Positions 4,091 through 63,752 of a stretch of DNA of 64,000 nucleotides are shown here, in pieces; the stretch's first letter is position 1, and each line of letters starts with the position of its first letter. Origin of the DNA: a plasmid. The stretch lies in the sequence record NZ_CP082221.1; one strand, written 5' to 3'. A program made the position numbers and the translations under genes. Below the pieces are notes generated by a model. That model did no database searches and was not told where the DNA came from. It saw only the letters and a program-made list of their open reading frames with translations.

Positions 4091-5194
4091 ATGCTAAATA
4101 ATGAATTAACAACACAAGTATTTTCAATTGAAAATGAAATGGAAAAACTTGATCTTGATATTGATAGAAAAGATGAAGTTTTAGCAATAGTTGAAAACTT
4201 AGATCTAATTAAGAACCCACAAAAGGTACTTGAGTTGGGGGCTAATAACCGTGATTCGTTAGCTGATCTTTCTAACCAAATGCTGTCATTAGTTACTAAT
4301 GATCAGTTGGGAGTTATGGGAGAATTAATGACGGATATTACTGTAAAATTAAAAAGAACAGACTTTTCCATTGGTAGTGATAAATCAAATATACCGTTGA
4401 TAGGGGGGCTGTTAGCAAAAATTGGTAATTCAAAAGACAGGCTTATTACTAAATTTAAGACAGTAGAATCACAATTAAATGATAATTTATTGCAAGTAGC
4501 AGAAGCTCAAAAAGGGTTGCAATTAAATAATGATAGCTTGACGAAATTATTTGAGCATACAATTTCTGTTTATACTCAACTAGGTTTTGCTGTCATAGCT
4601 GGTCGATATAAAAAAAATGAGCTTATTGGCTTGATTGAGTCACTTAACAGTGAAGGTACAGATCTAGCAAAGCAAAGAGCAAATGCATATTCACAAATCT
4701 TAGAGCGTTTAGATAAGCGTATTACGGATCTAGAATTGTTGAGATTAAGTGCCTTACAAACGTTGCCTCAGATTACTTTTTTGCAGAACAATAATATTGC
4801 GTTAATTGAAAAGTTCCAAACTATATCTGGCTTAACTATTCCAGCCTGGCAAAGACAATTAATGTTGGCCTTGAATATTTTAGATCAAAAGAAATACTCA
4901 CAATTAGGTGAGGAAATTGATAATTTCACAAATGAAACACTTCTAGAAAGCGCGAAAGATTTTAAAGAAACTTCAATTCATATTGCAAAACAAAGCAACC
5001 GCCAAGTTATAGATATTGAGACACTTCAGAAGGTGCAGCTTGATACATTAACTGCTTTTGAAGAAGTTATGGCAATCAACAAAACTTCAGCTCAGAAGCG
5101 AAAAGAAACACAATTACAGGCACAACAATTAAATGATCAGCTCAAAAGCCTGGTCGTTGCGGATCCGCAACAATTAAAAATCAGTGCAGATTAA
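4091..5194 (+). CDS. coiled-coil protein, possibly TelA/KlaB-like (toxic-anion-resistance family)
   Basis: 367 aa and alpha-helical, preceded by a motif-B leader. The family assignment is from memory of TelA architecture and is not verified. Carries one palindrome site in frame (ADPQ) at the C-terminus. Confidence 0.5.
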   Translation: MLNNELTTQVFSIENEMEKLDLDIDRKDEVLAIVENLDLIKNPQKVLELGANNRDSLADLSNQMLSLVTNDQLGVMGELMTDITVKLKRTDFSIGSDKSNIPLIGGLLAKIGNSKDRLITKFKTVESQLNDNLLQVAEAQKGLQLNNDSLTKLFEHTISVYTQLGFAVIAGRYKKNELIGLIESLNSEGTDLAKQRANAYSQILERLDKRITDLELLRLSALQTLPQITFLQNNNIALIEKFQTISGLTIPAWQRQLMLALNILDQKKYSQLGEEIDNFTNETLLESAKDFKETSIHIAKQSNRQVIDIETLQKVQLDTLTAFEEVMAINKTSAQKRKETQLQAQQLNDQLKSLVVADPQQLKISAD

Positions 5195-5206
5195 CGGGGA
5201 AATGTT

Positions 5207-6487
5207 ATGAACACTAAGTACTTATCTGCATTAAAAACAAATTTCATTAATGAAAACGAACTAGACTCATTATTAAGTGAAATTCAGGATTTACCAGGTC
5301 ATCCGCAATCCCTTACGACCTTACAAGATTGCGGATATAAAATGGGTGTAATCCATGAAGATTACTTTAACGTAATGTCTTCATTCACATTTCAACAATT
5401 TGAAAAAAGTAAGAGATCTATTCTATACGTCTACGATAAAGAACTAGTTTATAAACATATACAAGCAATACAGAAAGCTAAATATGTACTACCTTTAATT
5501 CTTAAGCAGTATGAAAATACAGAGCGAAAACTTAAAGAACTTATCGAAGGTTGTATTGCTGAAAAACAAAAGTATCAAAGGAACTTTGAATTACGTCAAA
5601 GACTTAGAGAGGTCTTACAAAAGAAATTAAGTGAACTGACTTCTGATAATGAAGATGAGTATAAAAAGCTATCTAAGCTTAATGATTTAAATAGCCTGCA
5701 AATTGTGAACAATGACTTAAGCCTTAAGTCTTTCGATATGGCTATTAATCTTGCTAAAGATAAATTGGGTAACTTTGATATAGCGAAGACACACGGGGAT
5801 ATGTGGAACACCAATTATTCTATTAAAGCTTTACAGAGTGATAATAAGGCCCTGATAGAAATTTCTAAAGACCCTGAAAAATATGACAAATTCAATATCA
5901 GAGACTTATCTTTAGTAAATTATGTTTGCGTCATAATTTTTGTACTTGTTCTTCTTGTAGCGGGATTACTAACGTTAGGTGATAATAAAAGCGAAATTAA
6001 AGAACCAGTTCATTTTGCAGCACTTGATGTTTATAACATGGTGAATGGTTCAAATCCTTCTTCAACAATAGGAAAACATAACAAAGAATTCTTTCTAAAA
6101 AATTATGAAAGTACGGTTCAAACATATAATAAATCACAGGACGTTTTAGTAGAATATTTGAACGGTTCACGAACTTTGACACCACAGAATAGGGAGGCTA
6201 TTCAAAAAGGTTATACCATACTTTTGCAGTTAGCAGATTTAAAAAGGGATGATATTACTTTTTCTATTAATCCTGATATTAAGTATTCGTATGAGTATGC
6301 TTTAGGAATCACAAAAAAGAATGATAATTTTAGTGGCTTTTGGAACTTTTATTATAAAGCCGTAGTTTATTGGTTTTTATTTATTTTAATCCCTTTTGGC
6401 ATACTTAACGGTTTATCTGAATTAAGGCAATATGAACTGAGAAATAAAATTAGAAAAATGATTGAGCCATATTATAAGCATAATTAA
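5207..6487 (+). CDS. hypothetical membrane-anchored coiled-coil protein (426 aa)
   Basis: Long ORF with a GGGGA SD and two C-terminal hydrophobic segments. Confidence 0.6.
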   Translation: MNTKYLSALKTNFINENELDSLLSEIQDLPGHPQSLTTLQDCGYKMGVIHEDYFNVMSSFTFQQFEKSKRSILYVYDKELVYKHIQAIQKAKYVLPLILKQYENTERKLKELIEGCIAEKQKYQRNFELRQRLREVLQKKLSELTSDNEDEYKKLSKLNDLNSLQIVNNDLSLKSFDMAINLAKDKLGNFDIAKTHGDMWNTNYSIKALQSDNKALIEISKDPEKYDKFNIRDLSLVNYVCVIIFVLVLLVAGLLTLGDNKSEIKEPVHFAALDVYNMVNGSNPSSTIGKHNKEFFLKNYESTVQTYNKSQDVLVEYLNGSRTLTPQNREAIQKGYTILLQLADLKRDDITFSINPDIKYSYEYALGITKKNDNFSGFWNFYYKAVVYWFLFILIPFGILNGLSELRQYELRNKIRKMIEPYYKHN

Positions 6488-6591
6488 GGATTAATTTTTA
6501 AATAAAATGATTAAAATATAATCCGATATATTGTATTATTGGTACTGAAAGTATTAATAGATTGATGAGCTGAAAAGCTTAAGGTGTTCTC

Positions 6592-6849
6592 ATGAAAAGT
6601 GAACTACATTGCTTTGAAAATAAAATAGCTACTATTTTTATAATAGCTATTTTTCTCTTCTTTATATTTGTTTTCATTAAACATTTTGATCATATCCAAG
6701 CAGCTTTATGGCCTAAAGTTAGTGCTCAAGGTGAGCCATGCTTATATAAAACAGTAGGTTATATAACTTCTCCGAAAGACGGTACATCAACTGAAATAAA
6801 AGGTTGGGTATGCCCTTCAAATAATAGTCAAATTTTAAAAAAGAGGTAG
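6592..6849 (+). CDS. small membrane/secreted protein (85 aa)
   Basis: Motif B GAGCTGAAAAGCTTAAGGTG directly upstream. N-terminal TM. Contains Cys. Confidence 0.55.
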   Translation: MKSELHCFENKIATIFIIAIFLFFIFVFIKHFDHIQAALWPKVSAQGEPCLYKTVGYITSPKDGTSTEIKGWVCPSNNSQILKKR

Positions 6850-6853
6850 AAAT

Positions 6854-7426
6854 ATGGAAAATTTATTATTGAATTCTCCTACATCTAAAGATTTCTTCAA
6901 AATGAATTTTAAAGAATTGTTGAATAATTATTGGCTCGCAATATTGGTGTCAATAGTATTTTTAATATTCGCATTTAATCAGAATTTTTTTATAGATGAA
7001 GTCACATATACCTTGAAACTAGCTTCAATTGCTTTAGCTGGATTAACTTTTGCAACTTTTATGATAAAGATTAATAAAATTGAGGATCTTTCAAGAAAGC
7101 TAACGGATGATGGGGTTTTAACTCTAATAAACATATTATCTGTTTATCCAGAATATGTTGAGAATGTTAAGGCAAAATTGAGAAAGAGTAACAAGCTAAT
7201 AGTACATGATATTTTAATTATTAGATGGGATTTTAATAATCAAATTTCTGAAATTTTAAAAATGGGTAATTTTACTAGCGATAAAAATAAAACAGATGAA
7301 ATTTCAATAAGTAGTATCGAGGATTTACGAACAACAAAGAATAAATTGAGTTTGTTATTAGTTGACCTTGATATTTCGATTAAAGCTCAGGAGGCATTTA
7401 CATGGAAACAAAGCATCCAGAAGTAA
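6854..7426 (+). CDS. membrane protein (190 aa)
   Basis: Translationally coupled to the 6592 ORF. GAGGT SD. Two TM segments. Confidence 0.55.
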   Translation: MENLLLNSPTSKDFFKMNFKELLNNYWLAILVSIVFLIFAFNQNFFIDEVTYTLKLASIALAGLTFATFMIKINKIEDLSRKLTDDGVLTLINILSVYPEYVENVKAKLRKSNKLIVHDILIIRWDFNNQISEILKMGNFTSDKNKTDEISISSIEDLRTTKNKLSLLLVDLDISIKAQEAFTWKQSIQK

Positions 7427-7597
7427 AAAAGGAAGAAGACATATTGTCTTTAGGCTTAGGCGGGAATGTCAAAAAAATTCTCATTAAGGCAGAGAAGTAC
7501 CATTGTTCACTTTGTGATCAAATTTTAGATCCAAAAGTTGAAAACCCAATAGATCATTCAATGTTATGCACCGGGTATTAAGTTAAGAGGATTACCT

Positions 7598-8227: not shown

Positions 8228-8266
8228 TTGAATTATTTAACGAGCCGAAGGGCTTATGGAGAGGTT

Positions 8267-8776: not shown

Positions 8777-8857
8777 TGTTCAGCTTTAAATAAGTCTTAT
8801 CAGTCTAGATAGGACTTAATTTTCATACTGGAGCTCTAAGGCTTAAGGTGTAGATAT

Positions 8858-9370: not shown

Positions 9371-9425
9371 TTATCTATTTTTTAGTAAAGAAAATTGAAG
9401 AGCCGAAGGGCTTATGGAGTTAGCT

Positions 9426-13166: not shown

Positions 13167-13289
13167 TATGTTTAAGTATTTGTTTATATTGCGTTAATAA
13201 ATTTGTAAGTGGTCGAGAATGTGTTATAATTTAAAGGTGAAATCGGATAGGCTGGTTTCAAATGAGCAGAAATGCTTAAGGTGAATATT

Positions 13290-13856: not shown

Positions 13857-13904
13857 GACATATATTTTAGCCGTTGCGGATCCGCAACGGCTACGGAGGT
13901 AAAT

Positions 13905-14087: not shown

Positions 14088-14153
14088 TCAAATATGAATG
14101 AATCGGATAGGCTGATTCTATTAATATTGAGCTGATAAGCTTAAGGTGAGTTA

Positions 14154-14852: not shown

Positions 14853-14854
14853 AC

Positions 14855-14884: not shown

Positions 14885-14990
14885 AATTAAATTTATATTA
14901 AAACAAAAATATGTTTTTGATGTATAATAATTAAAGGAAGTTGGATAGGCTAACTTCAAAATTTGAGCTGAAAAGCTTATGGTGATTAAT

Positions 14991-16586: not shown

Positions 16587-16889
16587 AGATAAAATCTAAA
16601 AAAGGGTAACTATAACGTGATAAAAAATTTCAAATTTATAGCTGTAATTAGATCTAATGGTGCGGATCCGCAACCATGAGGATTTAGATATGAAAATTAC
16701 AAACAGAAGAAGAAGTGAGATTAGAAAAAATTTATGGAAATGGTGTTCTATTTGCATAATTTTTTTAAGTTTAATCATCATTTTTTTTAGTTTGAAAGTG
16801 GATATTTTCGGAGTTATTTAATGGATCTGATTATGATGTTTGTTGGGTTTTGTGCTTTTGTTTTATGGATTATTCATGGTGTAAAATAG

Positions 16890-17310: not shown

Positions 17311-17450
17311 GCAAATGTATTTTATAATACGAAAAATTACACTAAATATATGTTTTTTCTTAATAAAAAGACATGAAAATGTAGTATAATTAAGGGGTGA
17401 AATCGGATAGGCTGGTTTCTATATATGAGCTGAAAAGCTTAAGGTGTACT

Positions 17451-17765: not shown

Positions 17766-17800
17766 TAAAAATTTGAGCTGTAAAGCTTATGGAGATCAAA

Positions 17801-18341: not shown

Positions 18342-18443
18342 CTTAAAATGTATAATTTCAACAACATAAATGATATAATTTATTTGTGAAATCGGATAGG
18401 CTGATTTCGAATTTTTGAGCTGAAAAGCTTATGGAGTTTTAAG

Positions 18444-18770: not shown

Positions 18771-18873
18771 TTTCAAAGTGATTGAATAAATTAAGGAAAA
18801 TGTTATAATTTAATCAAGAAATCGGATAGGCTGATTTCTATTTTTTGAGCTGAAAAGCTTATGGAGTTTACAA

Positions 18874-22998: not shown

Positions 22999-25900
22999 AT
23001 GCTAAGTGTTAACAATGTAGTTGAATCTGGAAAGGCTTTGTCTTACTACCAATTAGATAATTATTATACTAATGAGCAACAATCATTGGATCAAACTGAA
23101 TGGTATGGTCGTGGTGCTCAAGTATTAGGTATTAATGGTGAACAAATTGAGGCAAATACTTTTAAAGACTTGCTAGAAGGTAGAGTAGAAGATCAACAGT
23201 TGGGGCGAGTTAGGAAAGATGAAAATGGTCAAAGTTATATTGATCATAGAGCTGGTATAGATTTAACGTTTAGTGCTCCAAAATCTGTTTCGATAATGGC
23301 AGAGGTTTTTGAAAATCAAGATGTGCTACAAGCACATCTTGATGCTGTTAAAGATACTATTTCCGCTATTGAAGATCATTACACGCAAACTAGAATCAGT
23401 GTTGATGGCACAATTCAAAAATCAGAGAGTGATAATTTAGTTGTTGCTCTTTTTAATCACAATACTAGTAGAGCATTGGATCCGCAAACTCATACACATG
23501 CAGTTGTTATGAACATGACTTTAAATGATAAAGATTCATGGACGGCATTAAGTAACGAAGTAATTTATGATAATCAGGCAACCATAGGTTCGATATATAA
23601 TTCTAATCTCGCTCAAAATTTAAGAGCTATAGGTCTTGATGTAGAGGTAAAAGATAATCAGGGCAATTTTGAAATTGCCGGCTTTACTCCAGAAATGATA
23701 CAAGAGTTTTCTCAGCGAAGAACTCAGATTATTGAAAGTTTAAAAAGTAGAGGAATTGATATTGAAGATGCACCTGCTAGTTTGAGAGAACAAGCAGCTT
23801 TAAAAACACGGGAAAGGAAACAGGCATTTAATGAGGCTGAATTACGTCAAGTTTGGAAGGAACGTGCAAGTGAACTTGGCATTACACAAAGTTTTGTAGA
23901 TAAGCTAGAAGATAAAATTAAAACGAATCAGATGAATGCGGATCCGCAACCTTCAGAAAAAAACCAAAAAGACATATGGAAAACCGGATCCTCAAAAAAT
24001 GATCCGAATATATCATTTGAAGGGAAAACGGAAGTTTCTAGCGATAAATCTAATAACGCTGATAAAGAAGCACCAGATAAACGAATTGACAACTCTGAAA
24101 CGCAAAATCCGAGCGATAGCGCCATATCAAATGAAAAAGCTAGTCAAGTATCAGGAAAATCCCAAAAAGAGCCAGAAACGCAAAATATGGGCCAAGAAGC
24201 GCATATTCAAGATGAAGTTAGATTGGGTAAGAAACAAACTGAACCTAAAGCGAGTAACAATTCAAAAGACCAGACTGTACCTAGAGAACGACCTTATCAA
24301 AGAAAGAATCGTGAATCTCAACAAGTACTCATAAGCCAAAAAACAAAAGAAGCCGTTTACTACGCTATAGGGCATCACACCGAAAGAGAAATGATGATAC
24401 CTGAAACAAAGATACTAAATACGGCTATGAAATTTGACATACAAGAAGTAACTCATGAACAAGTACGAGCTGAGTTAAATAGACTAGAAAAAGAAAAAAT
24501 CATCGTCCGGGTAGATGGGAAGTTAACAACTCAGCGTTTGGCACATAGCGAAGTTTGGTCGTTACAACATATACAAAATGAACAAAAAAGCGTGAGTCCA
24601 ATAGTGGATGAATCTCAAGTTAAAACAAGACTCGATCAAGAGGAACAGTTGAGAGGGAGGAAGTTTACACCCGGACAAAGAGCAAGTCTTGAAACAATAT
24701 TTAGTTCTGAAAGTAGATATATAGGCGTAGACGGTTTAGCTGGTACGGGTAAAACTACAATGCTGCATACTTTGAATAAAGTAGCCTCAGAAAACGGTTT
24801 TATTGTTAAAGGTATGGCCGCCACTGGCGTAGCTGCTAAAAACTTAGAATTGGAAACTGGTATACCCTCAAAAACAATGGCCATGTTTCAGATTAAAGAA
24901 AATGAGCTTCAGAAAGAAATTGAAAAGAATGGGGGAGTAAACCGTAAAAATGAAATCTGGATAGTTGATGAATCTTCATTTGTAAGCCAGACAAACTTCA
25001 AAGACATTTTGACTTTGGCTAAGCAAGCTAATAGTCGTGTTGTTTTTTTAGGGGATAAATTGCAGCTTCAGTCAATTAGTGCAGGAAAACCATTTGAACT
25101 TGTACAAAATAGAGGTGTGCTAAAAACTTCACAAATGCATGACATTATCCGTCAAAAAAACCAGGAACTTAAAGACGTGGTTTCTGTTGTCGTTGCAAAA
25201 AACAAAGAAGGTAAAATTGATTTAAGTAACAACGATAAAGCTTTTGATTTACTTGATAAACAGCAAAGGATTCATGAAGTAGTTGTAGCTGCAAAGGGTA
25301 CACAACCAGCTCTACATGAGCAGCATGACTTATTTCAGGAAATTCATGAAGTACATCAAAAATTAGTTGGTGATTATATGAGGCTTAATAAGGAATCAAG
25401 AGATAATAGCCTTATCATTACTCCCTTTAACTCAGATAGAGTAATGCTGAACTCACTTGTAAGAAGCGAAATGAAAAAACTAAATGAATTAGATCATAAT
25501 GATCATAATTTTGAGATCTTAGTAAATACCAATTTCACTGAAGCGGAGCGTAAACATATTAATAATTATGAGCCTAATATGACGATACGTTTTGGGAAAT
25601 CATTTACAGATAAAGACACAGGAATCAAAATTGAAAAAGGTGACTATCTAAAAGTAATGATGAAAGACAAAGAAGGTAAATTGGTATTAATTGATAAGGA
25701 TAAAAATAAAATTAAATGGAACCCTAAAAAAGGAAGTGTAGAAGTATATAAATCAGAACAAAGAAAGATAGCTAAGGGAGATGTAATAAGAATTACCCGG
25801 ACAAAAGATGATGAACAGATCAAGAATGGTGAAAGATATAAAATCAAGGATATTCATGAAGATAAAGTAATAGTAGAAGGCCAGGATGGGAAAGAGAAAA

Positions 25901-27980: not shown

Positions 27981-28017
27981 ATAATTCACCTTAAGCTCTT
28001 CAGCTCGTATGTTGAAA

Positions 28018-28760: not shown

Positions 28761-28985
28761 GTTTAACTCCATAAGCTTTTCAGCTCTAAAATTTTGGTAT
28801 TGGTTAATTAATTTGTAATATTGAAGGCGGAAAATTGGATTGAATTAACATAAATGATAATGCTAACACCGCTGCAAGACATGGTGTCACATGATTATTA
28901 AATCTATGGATAAATAATATATGCCAGCCCATTAAAATTGAAATTCCTGTTAAATAGAATAATGGACCAATTTATTAACCCTCTC

Positions 28986-29183: not shown

Positions 29184-29325
29184 AGTATATCTCCTTAAGC
29201 TATTGAGCTCATTCTTTAAAAATCTAGGTTAAGTATCTACAAAATTCAAGAAAAAGTAAATGTAATAATACCGAATTGTATTATTTATTTGATTCAATAA
29301 CATCTCTTGAACCATTTTTAATCTG

Positions 29326-29985: not shown

Positions 29986-30241
29986 TTTTTGTACTCCATA
30001 AGCTTTTCAGCTCATTCATAAAGTTTTATGATGTTATATTGAATCAATATAATTTAATATGTATATTTGGTCAATATAACTCAGCAAGGTTGGCTAGGCC
30101 ATTTTAGATGCTTAAAATTCTATTTTAACCATATATAATTCTGAGGTCTTTTTAACTATACCCAAAAAAGCCATATTGATAGTAAATATGGCAATTATAG
30201 TTACCCATGATATTTGTTTATAAATGTAGGAGTCTGATCTG

Positions 30242-30880
30242 TTGAATAACGTAGCTCGTATTTACATGCGTGTCAGTACAGAGAAACAAGATCTTGAGCG
30301 ACAAGAGAAGGTGATAAATGATGCGCGAAATGCTGGTTATTATATTGCAGCAGTCTATAGGGAAAAAGCTTCAGGTATTACACCTGATCGTCCAGAACTT
30401 AATAGGATGATACATGACCTTCAAGCCGGTGAAGTAGTTATTGCAGAGCGAATTGACCGTATTAGTAGATTACCATTACCTGAAGCCGAGAAGTTAATTG
30501 TTGCAATTAAAGAAAAAGGTGCAAAACTTTCAATACCCGGTGTAATTGATTTATCTGAATTTTCAAAAGATGCTAGTGGAATTTCTAAAATTGTATTAGA
30601 TCAAGTACAAGACATGTTGCTAAAAATTGCATTGCAAATGGCACATGAAGATTATTTGTTAATTAAAAAAAGAAGGGAAGAGGGAATTGAACTTCGAAAA
30701 AATAAAGGTCTTTACAATGGTAGAAAAGCTGACAAAAAACTTCACGATAAAATTGTAGAGTTAAGAAAGCAGAATATTAGTATTTCAAAAACGGCATTAA
30801 TAGCAAATTGTAGTGTTTCTTTAGTTAAGCTAGTTTGGAAGAGATATAGCGAATCAAATTCATCTCAAGCTTTAAAGTAA
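30242..30880 (+). CDS. serine recombinase (resolvase/invertase family)
   Basis: N-terminal ARIYMRVSTEKQ with the catalytic Ser. C-terminal HTH. About 200 aa. Confidence 0.85.
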   Translation: MNNVARIYMRVSTEKQDLERQEKVINDARNAGYYIAAVYREKASGITPDRPELNRMIHDLQAGEVVIAERIDRISRLPLPEAEKLIVAIKEKGAKLSIPGVIDLSEFSKDASGISKIVLDQVQDMLLKIALQMAHEDYLLIKKRREEGIELRKNKGLYNGRKADKKLHDKIVELRKQNISISKTALIANCSVSLVKLVWKRYSESNSSQALK

Positions 30881-30908
30881 TTGTTGTTGCGGATCCGCAA
30901 CAACAATT
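30879..30908. terminator. 30-bp perfect palindrome AATTGTTGTTGCGGATCCGCAACAACAATT (extended copy of the scattered 16-bp motif)
   Basis: Read directly. Overlaps the resolvase stop codon. Confidence 0.45.
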
Positions 30909-30921
30909 GTTTGAGACTTTT

Positions 30922-32587: not shown

Positions 32588-32824
32588 ATGAATAGATTTT
32601 TTTTGCTTCTACTATGTTGCGGATCCGCAACCTTAGCAGTAGCAAAAGAACAAAAAAATGAAACAAAACAGCAGAGTATGAATGAACCTAACCCTATCAC
32701 CCGATATGTGAATGTTCTTCAAAAGGGTGAAGGCAGAGAATCAAAATTTGTTCTATGTGATCCAGAAAATAAAAGTTGCGTTCAACAAGAGCGCAGTGAA
32801 AAGCATTTGGCAGTAGCCAAATAA
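32588..32824 (+). CDS. small secreted protein
   Basis: GGAG SD. Signal peptide. A palindrome site lies inside the signal-peptide coding region. Confidence 0.45.
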   Translation: MNRFFLLLLCCGSATLAVAKEQKNETKQQSMNEPNPITRYVNVLQKGEGRESKFVLCDPENKSCVQQERSEKHLAVAK

Positions 32825-37182: not shown

Positions 37183-37827
37183 ATGAAAAGAAAAGGTATT
37201 TTACTTTGCTTGGCAATCAATCTAAGTGGATGTGCAGCATTTAACGGAGGGTTCGACGGTTTAAATGGTCAAAGCTCATTTTCATGCAAAGCGCCAGATG
37301 GAATTTTGTGTGACTCAATGTCAGGTGTAATGGCGAATTTGAATGCAAACAATTTGCCGTCACAGCAGGTTAAACATGGCAATAGTAAAGAAGTAATTGC
37401 AAATACATATATGCAGCGTACACGTGCGACTAAAGATAATGCAATGCCAGTAGCTCCATACGCAGATGAACCATTACTACGCCAACCGAAAACTCTCAGA
37501 ATTTGGGTAGCTCCGTGGGAATCTTCGGATAGAACTTTATTCGATCAACAATATTTCTATCTAGTAATCGACAATTGGAAGTGGATGATTGAACACAATT
37601 CTCGACGTCTACAAGATGCATACGCACCAATTGGAGCCCCAATTTCAAACTATTCAAGTCCAGCCATTACAGTTGCGGATCCGCAATCTACTAAAACAGG
37701 TTCAGATGGTCCTATACCAGTAAATGCTTCAGTTAATAGCCAGCCAAATAGTAAAGAAATTTTGAATGGAATAAATACTGAAATAAAAGACTTGAATGTC
37801 GATATCTCTAAGTTTACTAGACAGTGA
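37183..37827 (+). CDS. traV: TraV lipoprotein
   Basis: NLSGC lipobox with Cys residues. Position before traC. Confidence 0.5.
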   Translation: MKRKGILLCLAINLSGCAAFNGGFDGLNGQSSFSCKAPDGILCDSMSGVMANLNANNLPSQQVKHGNSKEVIANTYMQRTRATKDNAMPVAPYADEPLLRQPKTLRIWVAPWESSDRTLFDQQYFYLVIDNWKWMIEHNSRRLQDAYAPIGAPISNYSSPAITVADPQSTKTGSDGPIPVNASVNSQPNSKEILNGINTEIKDLNVDISKFTRQ

Positions 37828-37836: not shown

Positions 37837-40563
37837 ATGACTGGAAATAACAAACTAATCAATTTTAGAGCCATGCTCGCAAACTGGTTTAAGGTCCACG
37901 TATTAGGTGATGATCCGACAGGTAAAAAATTCTCAACTGTAGATTTAACGAATAAGATTCTTGAAAGCTACGGCATGTATCAGATATTTAAATACAACAT
38001 GTTTAATGTGAAAAGAAGTCTTTATTATAATGATGGCCCTTCCGTAAGCTTTGCTCTAGAAATCATACCGCAGACAGGATCAAATGAGGACTTCGTTTCT
38101 CGCATAGTATCTATTATTTCAAGTTTCCCTGCGGAAACAGGTATTCAGATATTAAACTTCGGTAATACAATTTTTGAAGATGATCTTCAAGAGTACTTGG
38201 ATTTACGTGTGGCGGAATATCAGAATGGTAAAGTGTCTGATTTCGCAATAGAATTTGCAAAGAATCGAATCAAACATATCCAGTCTCGTAAAGGACGGCC
38301 ACAGTTCGGAAGAGACTCATATTACGTTATTAAAAAACCAAAAATTATTCTATCAGTTACACGTTCGGGTAGTTATAAAGACCCACAACTAATTAAGCAA
38401 ATGGAAGAGTTGTTGCATCAGACAAGTGCTCAACTACAACAAGCTAAATTACCTAATATTGTTTTAACACCAATGTTACTGCTTAAAATAATTAAGCCAA
38501 TGCTTGACCCTGAGAGTTTATTTAGAACCGTTCCACCAGAACATGAATTCCAAGTTTCTCGCTCATACTACAGTGAAGATTATAATCGTCTAGAATCAAT
38601 AAAAAGTCAGTTAACACCACGTGGTCATTCAGCAACAGTTGGTGTGTCTGAAATAGTATTTGGTCAACCTATAATTGATAAAACTAAGGGAACTAATAGA
38701 TCAGTAAGAGTCTATGATTCTGAATGGATTGAAGAAGATGACGATGAAGATCTAGAAGAAGACAATCGAATTGCATTTCGTGGTTTTGGAGTTATGAGGT
38801 ATCCAAAATTCAAACATCTTTATGAAATGGGAAATGTAATTGGCGATTTTTTTGAAAATTCCCTTCAGTATCCATGCCCTTACATAATTTCGATGGGTAT
38901 TCATATCTTAGATAAAACATCTTCTGAAACCAAAGCAAGAATAAAGCAAGCTCGTTCAACACAGAATGCTGAAAGTAAAATGGCAAAATGGCAGCCTGAG
39001 TATGCTGAAATTGCTAGAGATTGGAATGCGATCACATATCACCTACATAAAGGTGGAGGGATGTGCGAGCTCTATCATACAATCGGGATATTCGCTCCAA
39101 GATCACAACTAGATAGTTATTCTGCAAACGTTGACAATTTATGGAAGTCAAACGGCTTTAGCGTAATGCCGTTATCTTGCTTACAACTGCCACTTCTTTA
39201 TTCATCAATGCCTATGATTTTGACAAAAAAGGCAAGAGATGATTTGAAGAAATTAAAGCTGATTACGACTAAAACAACTATTAATGCCGTAGATATGATG
39301 CCAATTTTGTCAGAATGGCAAGGTTTCGGTAAACCGGTAATTATGGTATTTGGCCGCAGAGGAACACCTTGTTTTTTTGATTTATTTTCAAATAAACAGG
39401 GGAACTATAATTTTTATATTTGTGGTACGTCAGGCGCTGGTAAATCTGTTTTCTCTCTTGAAATTTTGGCAGCTTACAAAAGCTTGGGCTTCAAAATATA
39501 TATTATTGACGTAGGACGCTCATTTAAAAACTTCGTAGCGCTCGGTAAAGGACAAGCAATTGATTTCGCAAAGCGCGAAAAGATTTGTATGAATCCTTTC
39601 ACATGGCTAGAGGTAATTGAAGATGAGGAACTTTCGGAAAAAGAAGGAACCTTAAATACATTTGCCCAAGAGATGAAAATGCTCTTGCCTATGTATGCAA
39701 AAATGGCTTCACCATCCAAACCATTAGACGATTACGATAAAGCTCTCCTTTCAAGAGCTATTAGAGAGACATGGTTAAAATTCCGCAATAACAATGGCGT
39801 AGACCAAATCTCTGACTTCTTGAAAGAAATTAGAGATCAAAACGGAAATATTGATGCACGAGGTTGGGCTCTTGGTACTCAGTTAGAAAATTTCAAAACA
39901 AACGGGATGTATGGAAGTTACTTTAATGGTAAAGCCAACATCGATATGAATAACGAGATGATATATCTCGAACTGGAAGAACTAAAAGACTCACCTGAAT
40001 TAAAAACGGTTGTGCTTTTCGGTGTTATGAACCGAATCATGCGAGATATGTATTTATCGCGATCTCAAGGGAAAATCGTGTTTGTAGATGAAGCATGGCA
40101 ACTACTTGATGATACAGAAGAAACAGCAGCTTTTATTGAAGAAGGTTATCGTAGAGCACGTAAATACTTTGGTTCATTTGGCATGGGTACTCAAGGTATT
40201 GATGACGCATTTGCGAATGATGCTGCTAGAGCTGCATATAATTCTTCAGACTGGAAATTCTTCTTACGCCAAGATGAACAAAGCTTTGAAAAGTTACTTC
40301 AAGAGAAAAAAGCGAACTTTTCTGAAGCTGTCATTAAACAAATTAAGTCAATTGAAAGTATCCACGGTTGGTATTCAGAAATTATGGTTACTTCACCAAA
40401 CGGTCAGCACATCGTAAGACATGTTGCGGATCCGTTTTCTTTAGCTATGGCATCAACAAACAAAGACGACTACAACTTCATTGAAGAATGCACGAATAAA
40501 GGCATGAGTATGACAGAAGCAACATACGCTTTAATGCGTAAAAAAGAGGCTGAAGAAGTATGA
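37837..40563 (+). CDS. traC: TraC (VirB4-family ATPase)
   Basis: 908 aa. Walker A GTSGAGKS, and Walker B around FVDEAW. Confidence 0.9.
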   Translation: MTGNNKLINFRAMLANWFKVHVLGDDPTGKKFSTVDLTNKILESYGMYQIFKYNMFNVKRSLYYNDGPSVSFALEIIPQTGSNEDFVSRIVSIISSFPAETGIQILNFGNTIFEDDLQEYLDLRVAEYQNGKVSDFAIEFAKNRIKHIQSRKGRPQFGRDSYYVIKKPKIILSVTRSGSYKDPQLIKQMEELLHQTSAQLQQAKLPNIVLTPMLLLKIIKPMLDPESLFRTVPPEHEFQVSRSYYSEDYNRLESIKSQLTPRGHSATVGVSEIVFGQPIIDKTKGTNRSVRVYDSEWIEEDDDEDLEEDNRIAFRGFGVMRYPKFKHLYEMGNVIGDFFENSLQYPCPYIISMGIHILDKTSSETKARIKQARSTQNAESKMAKWQPEYAEIARDWNAITYHLHKGGGMCELYHTIGIFAPRSQLDSYSANVDNLWKSNGFSVMPLSCLQLPLLYSSMPMILTKKARDDLKKLKLITTKTTINAVDMMPILSEWQGFGKPVIMVFGRRGTPCFFDLFSNKQGNYNFYICGTSGAGKSVFSLEILAAYKSLGFKIYIIDVGRSFKNFVALGKGQAIDFAKREKICMNPFTWLEVIEDEELSEKEGTLNTFAQEMKMLLPMYAKMASPSKPLDDYDKALLSRAIRETWLKFRNNNGVDQISDFLKEIRDQNGNIDARGWALGTQLENFKTNGMYGSYFNGKANIDMNNEMIYLELEELKDSPELKTVVLFGVMNRIMRDMYLSRSQGKIVFVDEAWQLLDDTEETAAFIEEGYRRARKYFGSFGMGTQGIDDAFANDAARAAYNSSDWKFFLRQDEQSFEKLLQEKKANFSEAVIKQIKSIESIHGWYSEIMVTSPNGQHIVRHVADPFSLAMASTNKDDYNFIEECTNKGMSMTEATYALMRKKEAEEV

Positions 40564-46783: not shown

Positions 46784-47113
46784 ATGAAAGCAAAATTAAT
46801 AGTAATTTCCTTATCTTTGATTTGTTCTGGCCCTATGTTCGCTGGCTCAAACTCAATGCAAGATGTTTTTTTGAAGATTAATAGTGAAAGAGAAACAGCT
46901 CATTCACTTCAGAAAAATAGATTAATCAAAGTTGAATCTGGCCGTTTTTGTAATGAACATAAAGAATTAACATCTAGTAAAACTAAGATTGCGGATCCGC
47001 AACATTTACATTCTAGTTCATTAAACGAAAGGAGCAGAAAACTTAAAAAACCAGAATTAAGTGGTACTAAAACCTCTGATGAGAATTGCGATAAACCAAT
47101 TCAAGTATCTTAA
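46784..47113 (+). CDS. small lipoprotein resembling the TraH N-terminus
   Basis: Motif B leader. GSNSMQDVFLKIN parallels TraH DPASMQEVFDQIN. Carries a palindrome site in frame. Confidence 0.45.
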   Translation: MKAKLIVISLSLICSGPMFAGSNSMQDVFLKINSERETAHSLQKNRLIKVESGRFCNEHKELTSSKTKIADPQHLHSSSLNERSRKLKKPELSGTKTSDENCDKPIQVS

Positions 47114-52187: not shown

Positions 52188-52215
52188 ATGCCCTCAAAAT
52201 TGAGGGCATTTTTTT
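52188..52215. terminator. bidirectional terminator ATGCCCTCAaaatTGAGGGCAT + T7
   Basis: Perfect stem. Lies between convergent genes. Confidence 0.6.
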
Positions 52216-53272
52216 AAGAAATTCTACATTTAGCAGTTCGTCTTATTTCATCTGACCATTCAAACAATTTCTCTTCAGATAAAGGAATTTTGCTATTCAT
52301 AGCAGCCTTGATAAAACACATTGTTCCATGCTCAGGATCATCGGAACTTCTTTCAGCTCTATAGTTATATAGTGAATTTACTAAGGAATTATAATTATTG
52401 TGATCAGCTTTTATTTTCCAGTATCCGATAGCAAAAATATCAGAGACGGCTTCACGCCAGAGTTGTGTTTGTTCAGATCTCTCATTAAGCAAATATGATT
52501 GCAGATCAGTAACTTTATTAGCTTGGTCGGGAGCGATGGACAGAGTGGACAATGGGTTCAAAGAGTTTTTGTTAGGTAAATCTCTTGACCTATCAAGACA
52601 ATGAGCAAATTCATGCATCATGATTCCTTGAACCCACAAGTCCTTATCGACTAAAGAAGGTGCAGTATTTAAGACATTTTGGGGTGATAGATTTAAAATG
52701 CAATAACCCGATGCTGCTTGCATAGAAGCCGGAGAAGCATTAGGGATATTAAGTGTTGTTAATGCCCAACTATCATTTATGTCGCCAAGCTCAACCACAG
52801 TTTTATAATTTTTAAAAGCGTAATCTTTTAAGATTTTAAACCCGGTTGCAGAACTTAGAAATTCTTGCCTTTGATCATCAAATTGCTTTTGCGAATAGAG
52901 TTTTAATGAATTACCTACTATAACGGCTATCAATGCAATCAACAGCGTAAAACTTGCAGAAAGAGAACCTGAAATTATGAATTGTTTTAATTTACTAGTA
53001 ACCGGATGAGGACCCTTTTTAATTTGACTATTTAATAAAAAAAATAAGGGAGTCATCGTCATCAAAGAAAGTATAGTTAAACCGATTACCGGGTAATGCA
53101 ACGGAATTATGAAGCCCAACAGAGGCCATATCATGATAGAAATCACAAATAGAATGAAAAGGACGGGGATAGTCAAATCATTCAAGTTAATTTTGTGATT
53201 AGACATTTTTATATCCTGGTAATTAGTTTCAAGCGTTGCGGATCCGCAAATAATTATTATAACTAACGACAA
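52214..53272 (-). CDS. membrane-anchored HExxH putative zinc metalloprotease
   Basis: N-terminal TM helices. MMHEFAHCLD motif. Paralog of the 55489 gene. Confidence 0.6.
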   Translation of the reverse strand: MSLVIIIICGSATLETNYQDIKMSNHKINLNDLTIPVLFILFVISIMIWPLLGFIIPLHYPVIGLTILSLMTMTPLFFLLNSQIKKGPHPVTSKLKQFIISGSLSASFTLLIALIAVIVGNSLKLYSQKQFDDQRQEFLSSATGFKILKDYAFKNYKTVVELGDINDSWALTTLNIPNASPASMQAASGYCILNLSPQNVLNTAPSLVDKDLWVQGIMMHEFAHCLDRSRDLPNKNSLNPLSTLSIAPDQANKVTDLQSYLLNERSEQTQLWREAVSDIFAIGYWKIKADHNNYNSLVNSLYNYRAERSSDDPEHGTMCFIKAAMNSKIPLSEEKLFEWSDEIRRTAKCRIS

Positions 53273-54678: not shown

Positions 54679-54963
54679 TTATTCTGGACTCGTAAACAGG
54701 AAATCAATAGAAATTTTTGGAGCTTCCTCAATATAAACAGGAATAGTATTTAAACCAAGTGCTAGCGCTGCCCTAAATCGGTTTTCCCCAAGATTAACAA
54801 TGAATTCTCCTGTTTTATCGGGATTCATTCGCACGCTGATAGGGAGTAAAAAGCCATCTTTCTTTATGCTCAATACAAGAGCTTCAATATTTTCGTATAC
54901 ATCATCTTTTTTACTTGATGAGATCAATTTCAGTGGCATTTGGATAATTTCTTTGGTTTTCAT
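54679..54963 (-). CDS. small ParB/Srx-domain protein (94 aa)
   Basis: LLPISVRMNPDKTGEFIVNLGENRFRAALALGL matches the ParB N-domain core. Confidence 0.5.
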   Translation of the reverse strand: MKTKEIIQMPLKLISSSKKDDVYENIEALVLSIKKDGFLLPISVRMNPDKTGEFIVNLGENRFRAALALGLNTIPVYIEEAPKISIDFLFTSPE

Positions 54964-58223: not shown

Positions 58224-58242
58224 AGTCTAAACAATTATCAAA

Positions 58243-60140: not shown

Positions 60141-60177
60141 TTGCAGCACTTTGATTGATTTTTTTTAGTATAGTATG
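60141..60177 (+). promoter_or_regulatory. promoter with conserved box TTGCAGCACTTTGATTG ... TAGTAT
   Basis: Third copy of the box. Confidence 0.45.
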
Positions 60178-60211
60178 TTCATTGCTTACGATGTTTTACG
60201 GTGAACTATAG

Positions 60212-60451
60212 ATGGAAAATCTTTATTTTTTTAACGAGAGAAATAAATATCTTAAAGATATCAAATATTTAATATTTTTACTTCTACAAAATTCTATTGA
60301 AGATGCCTCTATTGAGCATCAAAAATTGATATCTATGTCAGTAAGGATATTAAATAACGGTGTCCTATATAAGATGGACTTTTCTAGTCTAATTTCTTTT
60401 AAAAATGAACTTATAAATCTAAATAAGGAACTCAATAATGGTAACAAATAA
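60212..60451 (+). CDS. small protein (79 aa), possible antitoxin partner
   Basis: Overlaps the next gene by 14 nt. Confidence 0.4.
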   Translation: MENLYFFNERNKYLKDIKYLIFLLLQNSIEDASIEHQKLISMSVRILNNGVLYKMDFSSLISFKNELINLNKELNNGNK

Positions 60452-61520
60452 TTTTGAAAATTCTCTAAATTCTAGTTTGAATTCGGAAGAAAGCATTAAT
60501 CAACAATTTACTCAATTTGTAGATAAGTATTTTAGTTTTTCTAAAGCTTTAGCTGTTAGTCAAGAAACTCCAACAGCTATATTAACTGTGGGTACTCATG
60601 ATTCAGGTAAAGACGTAATCGTTGCACAAGCACAAGATGAATTAAATAAAAAAGGTGGTTCAATTTTAATTGACCAATCAATTTTTAAAGTTGCGGATCC
60701 GCAACAAGATAAAGACCATTCAATTCATCAATTGATTTCTACTATTAGTAATGAAAAATATAATTTGCTTTTAAATCATGAATTTAAAAATGAAAATGTT
60801 TTAAATGATATTACTGAATCGCTTAAGAGTAAAAATTATACGATTGAAATCAGAGCAGTATCTTCATTCCCCCCTAATGAAAACTCTTTAGATAAAAATA
60901 CACATCCTGAAACTTTAAGAGCAATAGAAGAATTAGAAAATTCAAAAGTTGTGGATAGTTTTAAAGTTTATGATCGTGTTGGTAAAGAAATTTACTCAAA
61001 CATGCGTAATGATGAAGGGGTATGGAACCAAAAAAAAGCTGGTTTAAATATCTATAATCAAGAAACGAATAAAACTTTATCTAAAACGGAGGCTGATTAT
61101 AATTTGCTGACGCAACAACAATTAAAAGAAATTGAAAATGCTCATCTAACAATTAATCCACGTGAAAACCAAAATAAAAATATAAACGGGAAATCAGAAA
61201 AGAACTTAGAAATAAATTTAGACCCACCAAAGATTATTAAAGATCCTGGTTCATTTAGAGATGTAGTACATGGTATCGTGACGGATGAGTCTGAAAGGGA
61301 TTTTACACTCAAAATCAATAACTTGGTTGGAATAAAATACAGTAAAGATCAATTAAAGGATCAACTCGAAAAAGACAATAACTTTTATCGTGGACGAGAG
61401 TTATTTATTAATCATGCTGGGGATATACCGCAATTAATGAATGAAAAGGAAATACAAGATTTTCATATTACTCAAGAACAAAGCTTACAACATGATGTTG
61501 GCGTAGAACTAGACAGATAA
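60438..61520 (+). CDS. zeta-toxin-like P-loop-fold protein with degenerate Walker A plus C-terminal extension
   Basis: LTVGTHDSGKD, IDQSIFKVADPQ, YNLLLNHEFKN and KNYTIEIRAVSS parallel zeta/PezT blocks (GGQPGAGKT, IDGDTFR..HP, YNLVIEGTGRT, KGYETKMYVMAV). Confidence 0.5.
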   Translation: MVTNNFENSLNSSLNSEESINQQFTQFVDKYFSFSKALAVSQETPTAILTVGTHDSGKDVIVAQAQDELNKKGGSILIDQSIFKVADPQQDKDHSIHQLISTISNEKYNLLLNHEFKNENVLNDITESLKSKNYTIEIRAVSSFPPNENSLDKNTHPETLRAIEELENSKVVDSFKVYDRVGKEIYSNMRNDEGVWNQKKAGLNIYNQETNKTLSKTEADYNLLTQQQLKEIENAHLTINPRENQNKNINGKSEKNLEINLDPPKIIKDPGSFRDVVHGIVTDESERDFTLKINNLVGIKYSKDQLKDQLEKDNNFYRGRELFINHAGDIPQLMNEKEIQDFHITQEQSLQHDVGVELDR

Positions 61521-61535
61521 TTTGGAGTTACTAAT

Positions 61536-62801
61536 ATGAAACTATTATTTGGTGAAGATGTAATTAGTAGTGATTTTGAAGGACTACAATCATTATTAAA
61601 ACAATACTATGAGAAGCGGAAACGTCCACTTTGTTTATGTACTAATAATGGTGTTGAAATGTACATAGCAAAAATAAATGAAAGTTATATTCTAAAAAGA
61701 ATGCCTAAAACAGGTGGAAGACATTCACCAGTCTGTTTAAGTTTTGAGCCTCCTGAAGAACTTTCCGGGCTTGGAGAGGTACAAGGACAGGCAATACAAG
61801 AAAATCCTGAAGATGGTACTACAAATTTAAAATTAGATTTCAGTTTAACTAAAATGCCAGGTAAAGCTCCGCCAGCCCCTTCTGGAGCAGATAGTGACTC
61901 GGTAAGAACTGATGGAAAAAAACTTACATTACGTGGATTACTTCATTATCTTTTTGAAGAAGCTAAGTTAAATTATTTCAATCCAGACATTCCGAAGAGA
62001 AATTGGTATACAGTAAGAAAAGCACTGCTTAATGCTAGTGATTCTAAAATCGCCAAAAGAGCTTCATTAACCGATAATCTCTATATTCCTGAAACATATA
62101 ATGATCAGAAGAAAAAAGAAATAATAGCAAGAAGAAATGAAAAAATGGCCCATATGAATACGGGCAAAGCATCACAAAACCTCATGATTTTAATAGGAAT
62201 AGTTAAAGAAATTTCAGAAGCCAGATACGATTTCAAAATGGTTATAAAGCATTGTCCAGATTTCCATTTTTTTATGAATAAGGATCTACATAAAAGAATA
62301 TTTAAACGGTTCCAAGAGGACTTAGAGCTTTGGGGTGCTCACGAAAACTCTCAATTAATTACTATCTCAACTTTTACTAGAGGAATTTCTGGTGTAGCTA
62401 ATTTAGAAGAAGTTAGTTTAATTGTTGTAAATGAACAGTGGATTCCTTATGAGAATATGTATGAATATGATCTTATAAATGAAATGATCAGAGAAAATAG
62501 ACCTTTTATTAAAGGGTTGCGTTACAATCTGGATAGAAAAAAACCGTTGTCGAGTTTAGTGGCTCTTGATACTTTGCCTGTTCCTACGGCAATGTATATC
62601 ATTCCGGCAGCACAATCTCACACGTATAAAGAAAGTGTAGTTAATTTGATTGAAGCTAGTGAATATGAAGGTTGGATATGGGAGGCTGAAATGGCGATGC
62701 CTGATCTTCCAAAACTTGGATTATTAACTACAGATTCAGAAATTTTAGAGGACAATTTAAAACCAAATGAGCAGTTATTCGATACAAATCGGACAAGTTA
62801 A
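61536..62801 (+). CDS. hypothetical protein (421 aa)
   Basis: Long ORF with a GGAG SD. Confidence 0.55.
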   Translation: MKLLFGEDVISSDFEGLQSLLKQYYEKRKRPLCLCTNNGVEMYIAKINESYILKRMPKTGGRHSPVCLSFEPPEELSGLGEVQGQAIQENPEDGTTNLKLDFSLTKMPGKAPPAPSGADSDSVRTDGKKLTLRGLLHYLFEEAKLNYFNPDIPKRNWYTVRKALLNASDSKIAKRASLTDNLYIPETYNDQKKKEIIARRNEKMAHMNTGKASQNLMILIGIVKEISEARYDFKMVIKHCPDFHFFMNKDLHKRIFKRFQEDLELWGAHENSQLITISTFTRGISGVANLEEVSLIVVNEQWIPYENMYEYDLINEMIRENRPFIKGLRYNLDRKKPLSSLVALDTLPVPTAMYIIPAAQSHTYKESVVNLIEASEYEGWIWEAEMAMPDLPKLGLLTTDSEILEDNLKPNEQLFDTNRTS

Positions 62802-63291
62802 GGGTTTATATGATGTATTTCTCGAAACTTGTGTACCAAAAAATTCTCCCCAATATCCAGAGCTTCAGAAAATCGGTGATGATTTTCTAAATAAAGTCGT
62901 GATGGAGGACCCTGATTATCATAATAGTCAGGTCTTCACTATTTTGAGTCAAGTAGCTGTTCCCGAAATTCAAAATAGACTTAAACGTCTTGAGTCCAAA
63001 GCAAAAAATAAAGATTTTGAAAAAAATTATTTTGATTGGAATTATATTGAGAGAGGGGTTGTTCAAGAAAGAAAGGACTTTATTAATGCTATCCATCTAA
63101 AGCAAATATATGAAAAAACAAAAAAACTTTATGAAGCTCAGAATGGTGAAGAGCTTACAAGTAGTATATATGCAGATCTCTTGAACGCGAATCCTCAAAA
63201 TCTCAGAAGAATGCTTACACATAAAAGAGAAATTGATACTCGTCTATTAGAAGAGGCAAAAAAGTGTCTTGAAAAACTTTCTACTAAATAA
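62767..63291 (+). CDS. hypothetical protein
   Basis: Overlaps the upstream gene by 35 nt. The start is uncertain. Confidence 0.45.
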   Translation: MSSYSIQIGQVKGLYDVFLETCVPKNSPQYPELQKIGDDFLNKVVMEDPDYHNSQVFTILSQVAVPEIQNRLKRLESKAKNKDFEKNYFDWNYIERGVVQERKDFINAIHLKQIYEKTKKLYEAQNGEELTSSIYADLLNANPQNLRRMLTHKREIDTRLLEEAKKCLEKLSTK

Positions 63292-63336
63292 TTTTTTTTG
63301 GTATGATTTACTCGTATGATTTAGATTAGAAATATC

Positions 63337-63717
63337 ATGGTTGATGAAACTCGTTATATTCCGGTTAAAGTTTTAAGACAGGGCAATATTTATTATTTAA
63401 ATTGCGAAGCGTTTGATATTGTAGAAAAATCAAGCAATTTACTACATTGTATTGAACAAATGAAAAACAGGATTATCGAAAAAGTGGTCGCTCTGCACCA
63501 TGCTGGAGAAAAATTACCAGTATTTGATCTTTACAAAAGTTTAAAAAGTGGCGGGATTTTATTAGAAATTCCGAGTAGTTGCTTTGATGATACATTAGAA
63601 AGAGTTACTTTAACTTTACCTAAGAGTGTTATTACTGGAATTGATGCCGTTTCTCCAAATAGAAGCGCAAAGTTTACACAATTGGCTAAAGAATTTATTG
63701 ACGGAGATAATAAGTAA
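63337..63717 (+). CDS. hypothetical protein (126 aa)
   Basis: ORF followed by the palindrome-terminator. Confidence 0.45.
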   Translation: MVDETRYIPVKVLRQGNIYYLNCEAFDIVEKSSNLLHCIEQMKNRIIEKVVALHHAGEKLPVFDLYKSLKSGGILLEIPSSCFDDTLERVTLTLPKSVITGIDAVSPNRSAKFTQLAKEFIDGDNK

Positions 63718-63719
63718 AA

Positions 63720-63752
63720 GTAGCTGTTGCGGATCCGCAACAGTTATTTTTT
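63720..63752 (+). terminator. CTGTTGCGGATCCGCAACAG hairpin + T8 (scattered palindrome doubling as terminator)
   Basis: 20-bp perfect palindrome followed by TTATTTTTTTTG. Confidence 0.5.

Follow-up and report, generated by a model that had tools for sequence, protein, structure and literature searches.

A dispersed 16-bp palindrome as the probable site of a KorB-like ParB on RepAci6-type conjugative plasmids of Acinetobacter baumannii

Why does one short perfect palindrome recur all along a conjugative plasmid, within genes as well as between them? The question is raised by a 64,000-nucleotide stretch of plasmid record NZ_CP082221.1 (the window, that is, the whole stretch analysed), which represents the backbone of RepAci6-type conjugative plasmids of Acinetobacter baumannii and matches approximately 230 to 270 Acinetobacter plasmids, mostly conjugative (MOB_F, MPF_F), at 98 to 100% identity. 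A previous reading of this DNA, made from the sequence alone, had noted 11 scattered copies of the palindrome and likened them to the operators of KorB, a ParB-family protein. The computational analysis described here bears out the 11 copies and argues for the proposed kinship: judging from sequence comparison, the palindrome is probably the site specifically recognised, both as parS and as operator, by the KorB-like ParB that the plasmid itself encodes (875-2131), a protein carried by approximately 230 PLSDB records.

Copy number, position and spacing of the palindrome

Exact and mismatch-tolerant searches of the window revealed 11 sites of the 12-mer core TGCGGATCCGCA, six of which are perfect copies of the 16-mer GTTGCGGATCCGCAAC, while three others (37672, 46988 and 53235) contain a perfect 14-mer and the remaining two (16659 and 23935) the 12-mer core alone (Table 1). 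The over-representation is extreme, as the 16-mer was matched 0.00 times in shuffled controls and the 14-mer, with as many as 2 mismatches allowed, 0.08 times, and a de novo census identified no other over-represented GC-containing palindrome in the window. The coordinates given in the sequence-only reading proved correct to within 1 or 2 bases, and every copy carries, as stated there, a BamHI site (GGATCC), simply because GGATCC is the motif centre. The two half sites that it had placed near 23477-23490 and 40423-40434 also exist (GGATCCGCAA and GTTGCGGATCCG, respectively) and are possibly decayed copies of the palindrome. Using the close relative NZ_CP096719.1 (p5741_2, 70.8 kb, starting at about the same position as the window) as the reference for the whole plasmid, we counted 13 sites, at an average spacing of about 5 kb. 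Outside the window, one site precedes the H-NS gene by about 30 bp, and another lies between the methylase gene and parA (NZ_CP096719.1, 70739-70754), about 45 bp upstream of the parA promoter (-35 box), a position consistent with short-distance autoregulation.

The sites are significantly enriched in intergenic DNA, both in the window plasmid (7 of 13 sites versus 13% intergenic DNA; P = 6e-4) and in its sister NZ_CP082222.1 (12 of 18 sites versus 15% intergenic DNA; P = 8e-7). Six to seven of the 11 window copies fall within open reading frames (ORFs), in frame and at positions conserved between lineages, where they are confined to segments that tolerate change, namely signal peptides or variable linkers. 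The reading frames reported earlier were found to be correct: the five firmly intragenic copies (in the telA-like, MobF relaxase, traV and zeta genes and in a 109-aa ORF) are read as x-A-D-P-Q, and the two copies in signal-peptide-like N-termini as C-G-S-A-T. For the gene at 52214-53272, the RefSeq start falls downstream of its copy, which on that start is intergenic.

The spacing of the sites on the circular plasmid is also more even than random, with a coefficient of variation (CV) of the gaps of 0.38 to 0.46 (simulation P = 0.0005 to 0.003) in five plasmids, which share ancestry and are thus not independent replicates. The CV for the sister plasmid was computed without its OXA-23 transposon and rises to 0.57 with it; the largest gaps between sites fall where accessory DNA is inserted. 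By contrast, the 11 KorB operator (OB) sites that the same method located on the control IncP-1 plasmid R906 are not evenly spaced, whether the whole plasmid (CV = 0.97; P = 0.69) or its backbone (CV = 0.73; P = 0.23) is considered.

Conservation of the arms and divergence of the centre

We compared the window with plasmids of other lineages, its sister NZ_CP082222.1, pKBN10P02143, pCZH-5-2 and pBDT201-3 among them. Counting the motif in related Acinetobacter plasmids, as the earlier reading had suggested, showed that sister lineages with a DNA identity of only 65 to 76% and a ParB identity of 60 to 66% have kept the exact 16-mer. NZ_CP082222.1, which belongs to a different rep cluster and encodes a ParB 60% identical to that of the window, harbors 18 sites, 14 of them perfect 16-mers. 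At positions shared with the window the motif is 94 to 100% identical, while the ungapped 60-bp flanks are only 22 to 63% identical. Shared positions include those in the MobF relaxase gene, traV and the zeta-toxin-family gene and that of site 11, and the polymerase gene of NZ_CP082222.1, like the one next to site 9, is preceded by a site. The exact 16-mer was further found upstream of parA and/or right after the parB terminator hairpin in three contigs (L125, L126 and L128) whose ParB is 61 to 66% identical to that of the window. A third lineage (L058/L059; CAZNMO010000021.1, 34.8 kb, 32 to 34% GC), brought up by a genome scan for the 16-mer and 72 to 76% identical to NZ_CP082222.1, contains four exact 16-mers and one copy with 2 mismatches. 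This last contig is binned in an "uncultured Clostridiaceae" metagenome-assembled genome, yet it is a plasmid of this Acinetobacter family, and its placement is likely a binning error.

The more distant plasmids pKBN10P02143, pCZH-5-2 and pBDT201-3 share the same backbone architecture, with a ParB only 23 to 29% identical to that of the window. They keep the arms of the palindrome and change its centre, to GTTGCG-N4-CGCAAC or TTGCGATATCGCAA: (i) pKBN10P02143 has nine dispersed copies of GTTGCG-N4-CGCAAC, (ii) pCZH-5-2 has 13 copies of the TTGCG-N4-CGCAA arms, all but one being the full GTTGCG-N4-CGCAAC, and (iii) pBDT201-3 has 14 copies of (A/G/C)TTGCG(A/T)TA(T/A)CGCAA(T/C/A), mostly ATAT-centred. 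Hence, depending on the lineage, the 4-bp centre is GATC, ATAT or variable. Among the coding copies, all five lineages have one in the signal peptide of the ORF heading the tra operon (32616 in the window), and several lineages have others in common, located in the TraW signal peptide, in traF and in the N-terminal region of mobF. In these conserved positions the encoded peptide tracks the DNA centre (CCGSAT, CCVTAT, NCVIAI), while the ADPQ copies sit in variable linkers that show no conservation in other lineages; it is therefore the DNA motif, and not the peptide, that is selected, as had been proposed.

Related plasmids also contain other repeats. In NZ_CP082222.1 the three copies of the variant AGTGCGGATCCGCAAC, at 17768, 59699 and 75206, have the same left flank over at least 15 bp (GCGCTTATGCTTTCT), and two of them have a common right flank as well; they are therefore part of a longer repeated unit. 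A second kind of dispersed palindrome, absent from the window, is represented by four copies of TATAACCTAGGTTATA in pKBN10P02143 (32540, 34499, 36016 and 45366), nine copies of the core ATAACCTAGGTTAT between 20424 and 34202 in pCZH-5-2, and three copies of ATAGATGCATCTAT in NZ_CP082222.1; these second palindromes may be operators of further regulators.

The KorB-like ParB and the competing explanations

The parAB locus shows the features of a type I ParABS system, with a Walker-type ParA followed by a helix-turn-helix (HTH) ParB in one operon and palindromes beside it. In every lineage examined, a palindrome is located upstream of the parA promoter, and in several lineages another one directly follows parB. 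The upstream copy is about 45 to 100 bp from the promoter in the window lineage, the NZ_CP082222.1 lineage, L126 and L128, and lies 77 to 120 bp upstream of parA in pKBN10P02143, pCZH-5-2 and pBDT201-3. The downstream copy stands directly 3' of the parB terminator hairpin in NZ_CP082222.1 (compared over 2110-2215), L125 and L126, and is degenerate in L128 and L131 (ATTGCGATTCCGCAAT).

The ParB at 875-2131, which the sequence-only reading had named as a candidate binder, matches the Pfam domains ParB_N (PF02195; E = 2e-11) and KorB (PF08535; 39.7 bits versus a cutoff of 22.3), and its best match among solved structures is RK2 KorB, both by sequence (8qa8; E = 1e-13) and by predicted fold (8qa8/8qa9). 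The AlphaFold2 model used for the latter comparison is of moderate quality (mean predicted local distance difference test [pLDDT] score of 58), with the N-terminal and DNA-binding domains well modelled. Residues 150-170 (KSKTWVSRRLQLL) make up the region of the HTH recognition helix, (K/E)(T/S)W(V/I)SR(R/H)L, which is conserved in an alignment of all lineages whereas the linker is hypervariable, and the equivalents of KorB R117 and N146, R90 and N120, are invariant (cf. PMC11790492). The arms of the palindrome and the recognition helix of ParB are thus conserved together in the five lineages, while the centre is lineage-specific. Taken with the KorB domain and the positions of the sites, this co-conservation, seen at the level of sequence, supports the view that the palindrome is a KorB-like operator and that ParB is a good candidate for its binder.

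We infer, beyond these observations, the identity of the binder, its use of CTP and the outcome in silencing and partition. A ParB dimer would recognise the two 8-bp half-sites, GTTGCGGA each, via its HTH and KorB-type DNA-binding domain, and would most likely close as a CTP-dependent clamp and slide onto the adjoining DNA. Since sites occur about every 5 kb around the backbone, the long tra operon included, ParB could reach essentially every promoter. Together with ParA it would mark the plasmid for partition; acting from the site that precedes the parA promoter, it would autoregulate parAB, and it would also tone down transfer and maintenance gene expression. All three roles, in partition, autoregulation and global silencing, are proposed here by analogy with known systems.

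Such systems have been described. Dispersed OB sites are established for the KorB-domain ParB of RK2 (PMC11790492), and for IncC plasmids electrophoretic mobility shift assays have shown that a ParB with ParB and KorB domains binds to 16 scattered inverted repeats (PMC10954446). Like IncP-1 KorB (RK2/RP4), the window ParB combines a ParB/Srx N-domain, putatively of CTPase type, with a KorB-type DNA-binding domain and is encoded beside ParA, and, as in the KorB/OB system, about a dozen copies of one short palindrome are distributed over promoter regions, other spaces between genes and the interior of transfer genes, one of them upstream of the protein's own operon. The two systems differ in their site (the 16-bp GTTGCGGATCCGCAAC versus the 13-bp TTTAGCSGCTAAA of KorB) and in that the plasmid has a MOB_F/MPF_F backbone, Acinetobacter hosts and evenly spaced sites, unlike the uneven ones of R906. 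The IncC (IncA/C) system is likewise characterized by a KorB-domain ParB, approximately 31% identical to residues 54-230 of the window ParB, and by many scattered inverted repeats, one of which is in the parA promoter region (PMC10954446). Its site is, however, 22 bp long (AAAC-TTTCACATGTGAAA-GTTT), the plasmid family and hosts are different, and binding is experimental there while it is predicted for the window ParB. Finally, the chromosomal or Bsr-type parS TGTTTCACGTGAAACA is also a 16-bp perfect palindrome with contiguous 8-bp arms, bound by an HTH ParB dimer and present in several copies per replicon, and the outer GTT...AAC, whose resemblance had been pointed out earlier, is indeed common to both (PMC5450999); the inner sequence differs, and chromosomal sites cluster near the origin whereas those of the window are spread evenly.

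Several observations weigh against assigning the palindrome to this ParB. The link between the two is drawn from position, homology and co-conservation. The P-motif, GHYRYLAH (residues 87-94), is invariant in the window lineage and departs from GxRRxR (GARRYR in KorB); more distant relatives have GARRVLA, GSRRLKA or GSSRIRA, the second arginine (the equivalent of KorB R117) alone being kept, so that CTP binding or hydrolysis may be altered, as far as can be judged from sequence. No Pfam match to the SH3-like KorB_C domain was obtained in ParB, whose C-terminal domain is predicted to be all-helical (AlphaFold2, pLDDT of about 55 to 84). No KorA-like gene was seen, in that no plus-strand ORF of at least 40 aa is nested in parA or parB, and the palindrome census of the window returned no second over-represented operator family; no counterpart of the TrbA/KorA operator family of IncP-1 plasmids was seen. 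Over 2131-2267, the window lineage has kept the parB hairpin and lost the palindrome downstream of it. Consensus scans for promoters at the sites gave no more matches than shuffles in this AT-rich DNA and revealed no clear promoter at most of them, a clear sigma-70 promoter being apparent, by eye and by conservation, for parA alone. The family of the window ParB is moreover very narrow (8 clusters among 5.8 billion proteins and 2 metagenome loci); a homologue 44% identical sits on a 1.6-kb contig without flanks, and no homologue with changed arms was found among these clusters and loci, so there is no true specificity-switch covariation.

The sequence-only reading had also considered, as a possible binder, the 94-aa protein encoded at 54679-54963 (minus strand). 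This candidate was rejected, as the protein consists of a ParB N-terminal domain only, without an HTH. It is a paralogue of the ParB N-domain, 42 to 45% identical to the N-domains of the sister and distant ParB proteins, and is encoded by both the window lineage and the third lineage; tblastn against the sister plasmid and pKBN10P02143 matched parB itself only. It could heterodimerise with ParB or modulate it.

The alternative that survives best, although we consider it unlikely, is that the sites bind another protein (a plasmid regulator, a resolvase or a host transcription factor) and that ParB uses some other centromere. The assignment of ParB as binder is indeed indirect, about half of the plasmid genes are hypothetical, DUF1173, the resolvase, H-NS and several small ORFs are also conserved across all lineages, and the second palindrome family in relatives (ATAACCTAGGTTAT; 4 and 9 copies) shows that the backbone holds further regulators. 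On the other hand, the window contains no other over-represented palindrome that could serve as parS, the sites bracket parAB in several lineages, their geometry (16 bp, two 8-bp arms) matches ParB centromeres (PMC5450999), and no conserved protein of the set other than ParB has a recognisable HTH of a family known to use many dispersed palindromes. As plasmids with different centres are found in the same host species, a plasmid-encoded binder is favoured over a host factor, which makes that version of the alternative unlikely in itself.

There is very little to recommend the possibility that the palindromes act as single strands, either as terminator or RNA-stabilising hairpins or as hairpins in the DNA strand transferred by conjugation. 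The sequence-only reading had described three intergenic copies as extended palindromes doubling as terminator-like hairpins. The three extensions do exist, as perfect palindromes of 26 bp (13868-13893, slightly longer than had been described), 30 bp (30879-30908) and 20 bp (63724-63743), and three to four intergenic copies can be counted as extended to 20-30 bp; the terminator-like character holds, by a scan of two regions comprising four sites, only at 30875-30912, which scores as an intrinsic terminator, and T-runs follow the copy at 63726 and several copies of the sister lineage. Most copies, however, lack a T-run, and seven are located within coding sequences or at their beginning, where termination would be harmful; terminators need no identical 16-mer, and the arm sequence is conserved beyond what pairing requires, which points to sequence-specific recognition. 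An RNA-loop reading of the asymmetric centres of pKBN10P02143 and pCZH-5-2 (GTAA versus TTAC; GTGA) was also rejected, the orientation of these centres ignoring the transcribed or coding strand.

We give hardly any credence to a repetitive extragenic palindromic (REP)-like or selfish element, a DNA-uptake signal or a restriction-related (BamHI/GATC) signal, despite the short, dispersed nature of a palindrome containing GGATCC and GATC and the orphan methylases encoded by related plasmids, since in-frame copies occupy gene positions conserved over deep divergence, unlike inserted REP elements, the transposon and other accessory DNA of these plasmids are devoid of the motif, a 16-bp specificity far exceeds any type II site, and the centres of relatives contain neither GATC nor GGATCC, so that the restriction site is incidental. 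A scan of 185,579 species genomes for the 16-mer also bears on this reading: among the 120 matches listed, almost all are single chance matches in high-GC genomes (median GC 65%), no Acinetobacter chromosome is present, and the only multi-copy contig is a plasmid of the window's family.

Overall, recognition by the plasmid's own ParB is the explanation that we prefer. Given its GHYRYL motif, the absence of an SH3-like C-terminus and of a nested korA, the different site and the even spacing, the system is of the KorB/OB-like kind and not an orthologue of IncP KorB; most likely, it adds a hitherto undescribed member to the KorB/OB and IncC ParB/parS kind, whose principle is already known. We also considered, as a more speculative extension that we hold to be doubtful, that the sites are deliberately set out at even intervals (of about 5 kb, backbone gaps not exceeding approximately 9 to 10 kb) as an array from which sliding ParB clamps coat the whole plasmid, the 4-bp centre discriminating between co-resident relatives. 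The motif would then have been written into signal peptides and linkers in order to keep the array going inside the packed tra operon.

Other elements of the backbone and implications

Along the window, the gene content comprises parA-parB, a small accessory gene block, the genes for the coupling protein (T4CP) and MobF, an F-type tra operon, a Y-family polymerase gene, rep and zeta-DUF1173, with the H-NS and N6-methylase genes following downstream, beyond the window. The coordinates of the sites and of the features associated with them are compiled in Table 1.

Table 1. Palindrome sites, parAB elements and the 18-nt cassette in the window (+, plus strand; -, minus strand)
Feature	Position	Strand	Sequence	Context
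Site 1	5156..5171		perfect 16-mer	final 39 bp of telA-like gene; next start codon 36 bp downstream; read V-A-D-P-Q
Site 2	13873..13888		perfect 16-mer	intergenic; core of the 26-bp perfect palindrome; small gene begins 16 bp downstream (RefSeq annotation of close relative)
Site 3	16659..16674		GGTGCGGATCCGCAAC, 1 mismatch	intergenic; 15 bp upstream of 43-aa ORF with Shine-Dalgarno-like GAGGA
Site 4	23935..23950		AATGCGGATCCGCAAC	inside MobF relaxase gene, about aa 313, variable linker; read N-A-D-P-Q
Site 5	30886..30901		perfect 16-mer	intergenic, between convergent resolvase gene and minus-strand gene
Site 5 palindrome	30879..30908		30 bp, perfect	scores as terminator-like
Site 6	32616..32631		perfect 16-mer	signal peptide (CCGSAT) of 78-aa ORF heading tra (mating-pair) operon
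Site 7	37672..37687		GTTGCGGATCCGCAAT	variable linker of traV; read V-A-D-P-Q
Site 8	46988..47003		ATTGCGGATCCGCAAC	109-aa ORF between traF and traH; read I-A-D-P-Q
Site 9	53235..53250		GTTGCGGATCCGCAAA	divergent region between minus-strand gene (RefSeq start corresponding to 53206) and Y-family polymerase gene (53372)
Site 10	60690..60705		perfect 16-mer	variable segment of zeta-toxin-family gene; read V-A-D-P-Q
Site 11	63726..63741		perfect 16-mer	intergenic; 9 bp past stop of gene 63337-63717; then T-run, terminator-like
Half site	23478..23487		GGATCCGCAA	candidate decayed copy
Half site	40423..40434		GTTGCGGATCCG	3' end of traC; candidate decayed copy
parA promoter	7..35	+	-35 TTGCAA, 18-nt spacer, -10 TATAAT	conserved in other lineages
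parA	98..871	+		Walker-type partition ATPase, ParB partner
parB	875..2131	+		418 aa, KorB-like ParB, proposed binder
18-nt cassette	2187, 3760, 6567, 8242, 8831, 9400, 10729, 11332, 13264, 14129, 14965	+		
18-nt cassette	15415, 17427, 17775, 18417, 18847, 46759, 63845	+		
18-nt cassette	27989-28006, 28769-28786, 29193-29210, 29996-30013	-		

Two further repeated elements came to light in the window. The first is an 18-nt cassette with the sequence GAGC-N-GAAR-N'-GCTT, followed by A(A/T)GG, and is present in 22 copies (0.07 expected). Each copy precedes the start codon of a gene by 7 to 11 nt, and nearly all of the 22 genes concerned have accessory or maintenance roles. The cassette folds into a stem of 5 bp that is capped by a GAAA or GAAG tetraloop and directly adjoins the Shine-Dalgarno sequence. 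Covariation of the closing pair (T-A, A-T, C-G) suggests an element controlling translation at the RNA level; at the gathering threshold, no Rfam family was found anywhere in the window, the cassette included. The second is a hairpin, AAATCGG-ATAGG-CTGATTT, with GGA in its loop, which occurs on the plus strand at 46-62, 13241-13257, 14101-14117, 17401-17417, 18390-18406 and 18820-18836, with a compensatory variant near 14940. Lying between a TATAAT -10 box and the 18-nt cassette, it completes a conserved two-hairpin 5' untranslated region, which is also found upstream of parA, is conserved in other lineages and resembles in its architecture the two-site targets of CsrA/RsmA (GGA hairpin plus Shine-Dalgarno sequence).

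In the literature searched, no paper contained the 16-mer, the matches to the 12-mer appeared incidental and concerned unrelated topics, and no parS, operators or regulatory circuitry were described for RepAci6-type plasmids. These plasmids (pACICU2, pAb-G7-2 and relatives) count among the principal conjugative vehicles of OXA-23 carbapenem resistance and of aphA6 in A. baumannii, and the defined site provides a handle for chromatin immunoprecipitation sequencing, incompatibility-based plasmid curing and reporter studies. The 16-mer is also a signature by which the backbone can be recognised in assemblies, as exemplified by the mis-binned "Clostridiaceae" contig, and the five lineages, having the same arms and different centres, constitute a natural series for the study of specificity divergence in ParB/KorB proteins. 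The even spacing, which the single IncP-1 control lacks, hints that coverage may be required, which would be a novelty for the KorB/ParB class, and, if true, coating of the whole replicon would represent a distinct mode of plasmid control, through global silencing or through the shielding or compaction of incoming or resident DNA.

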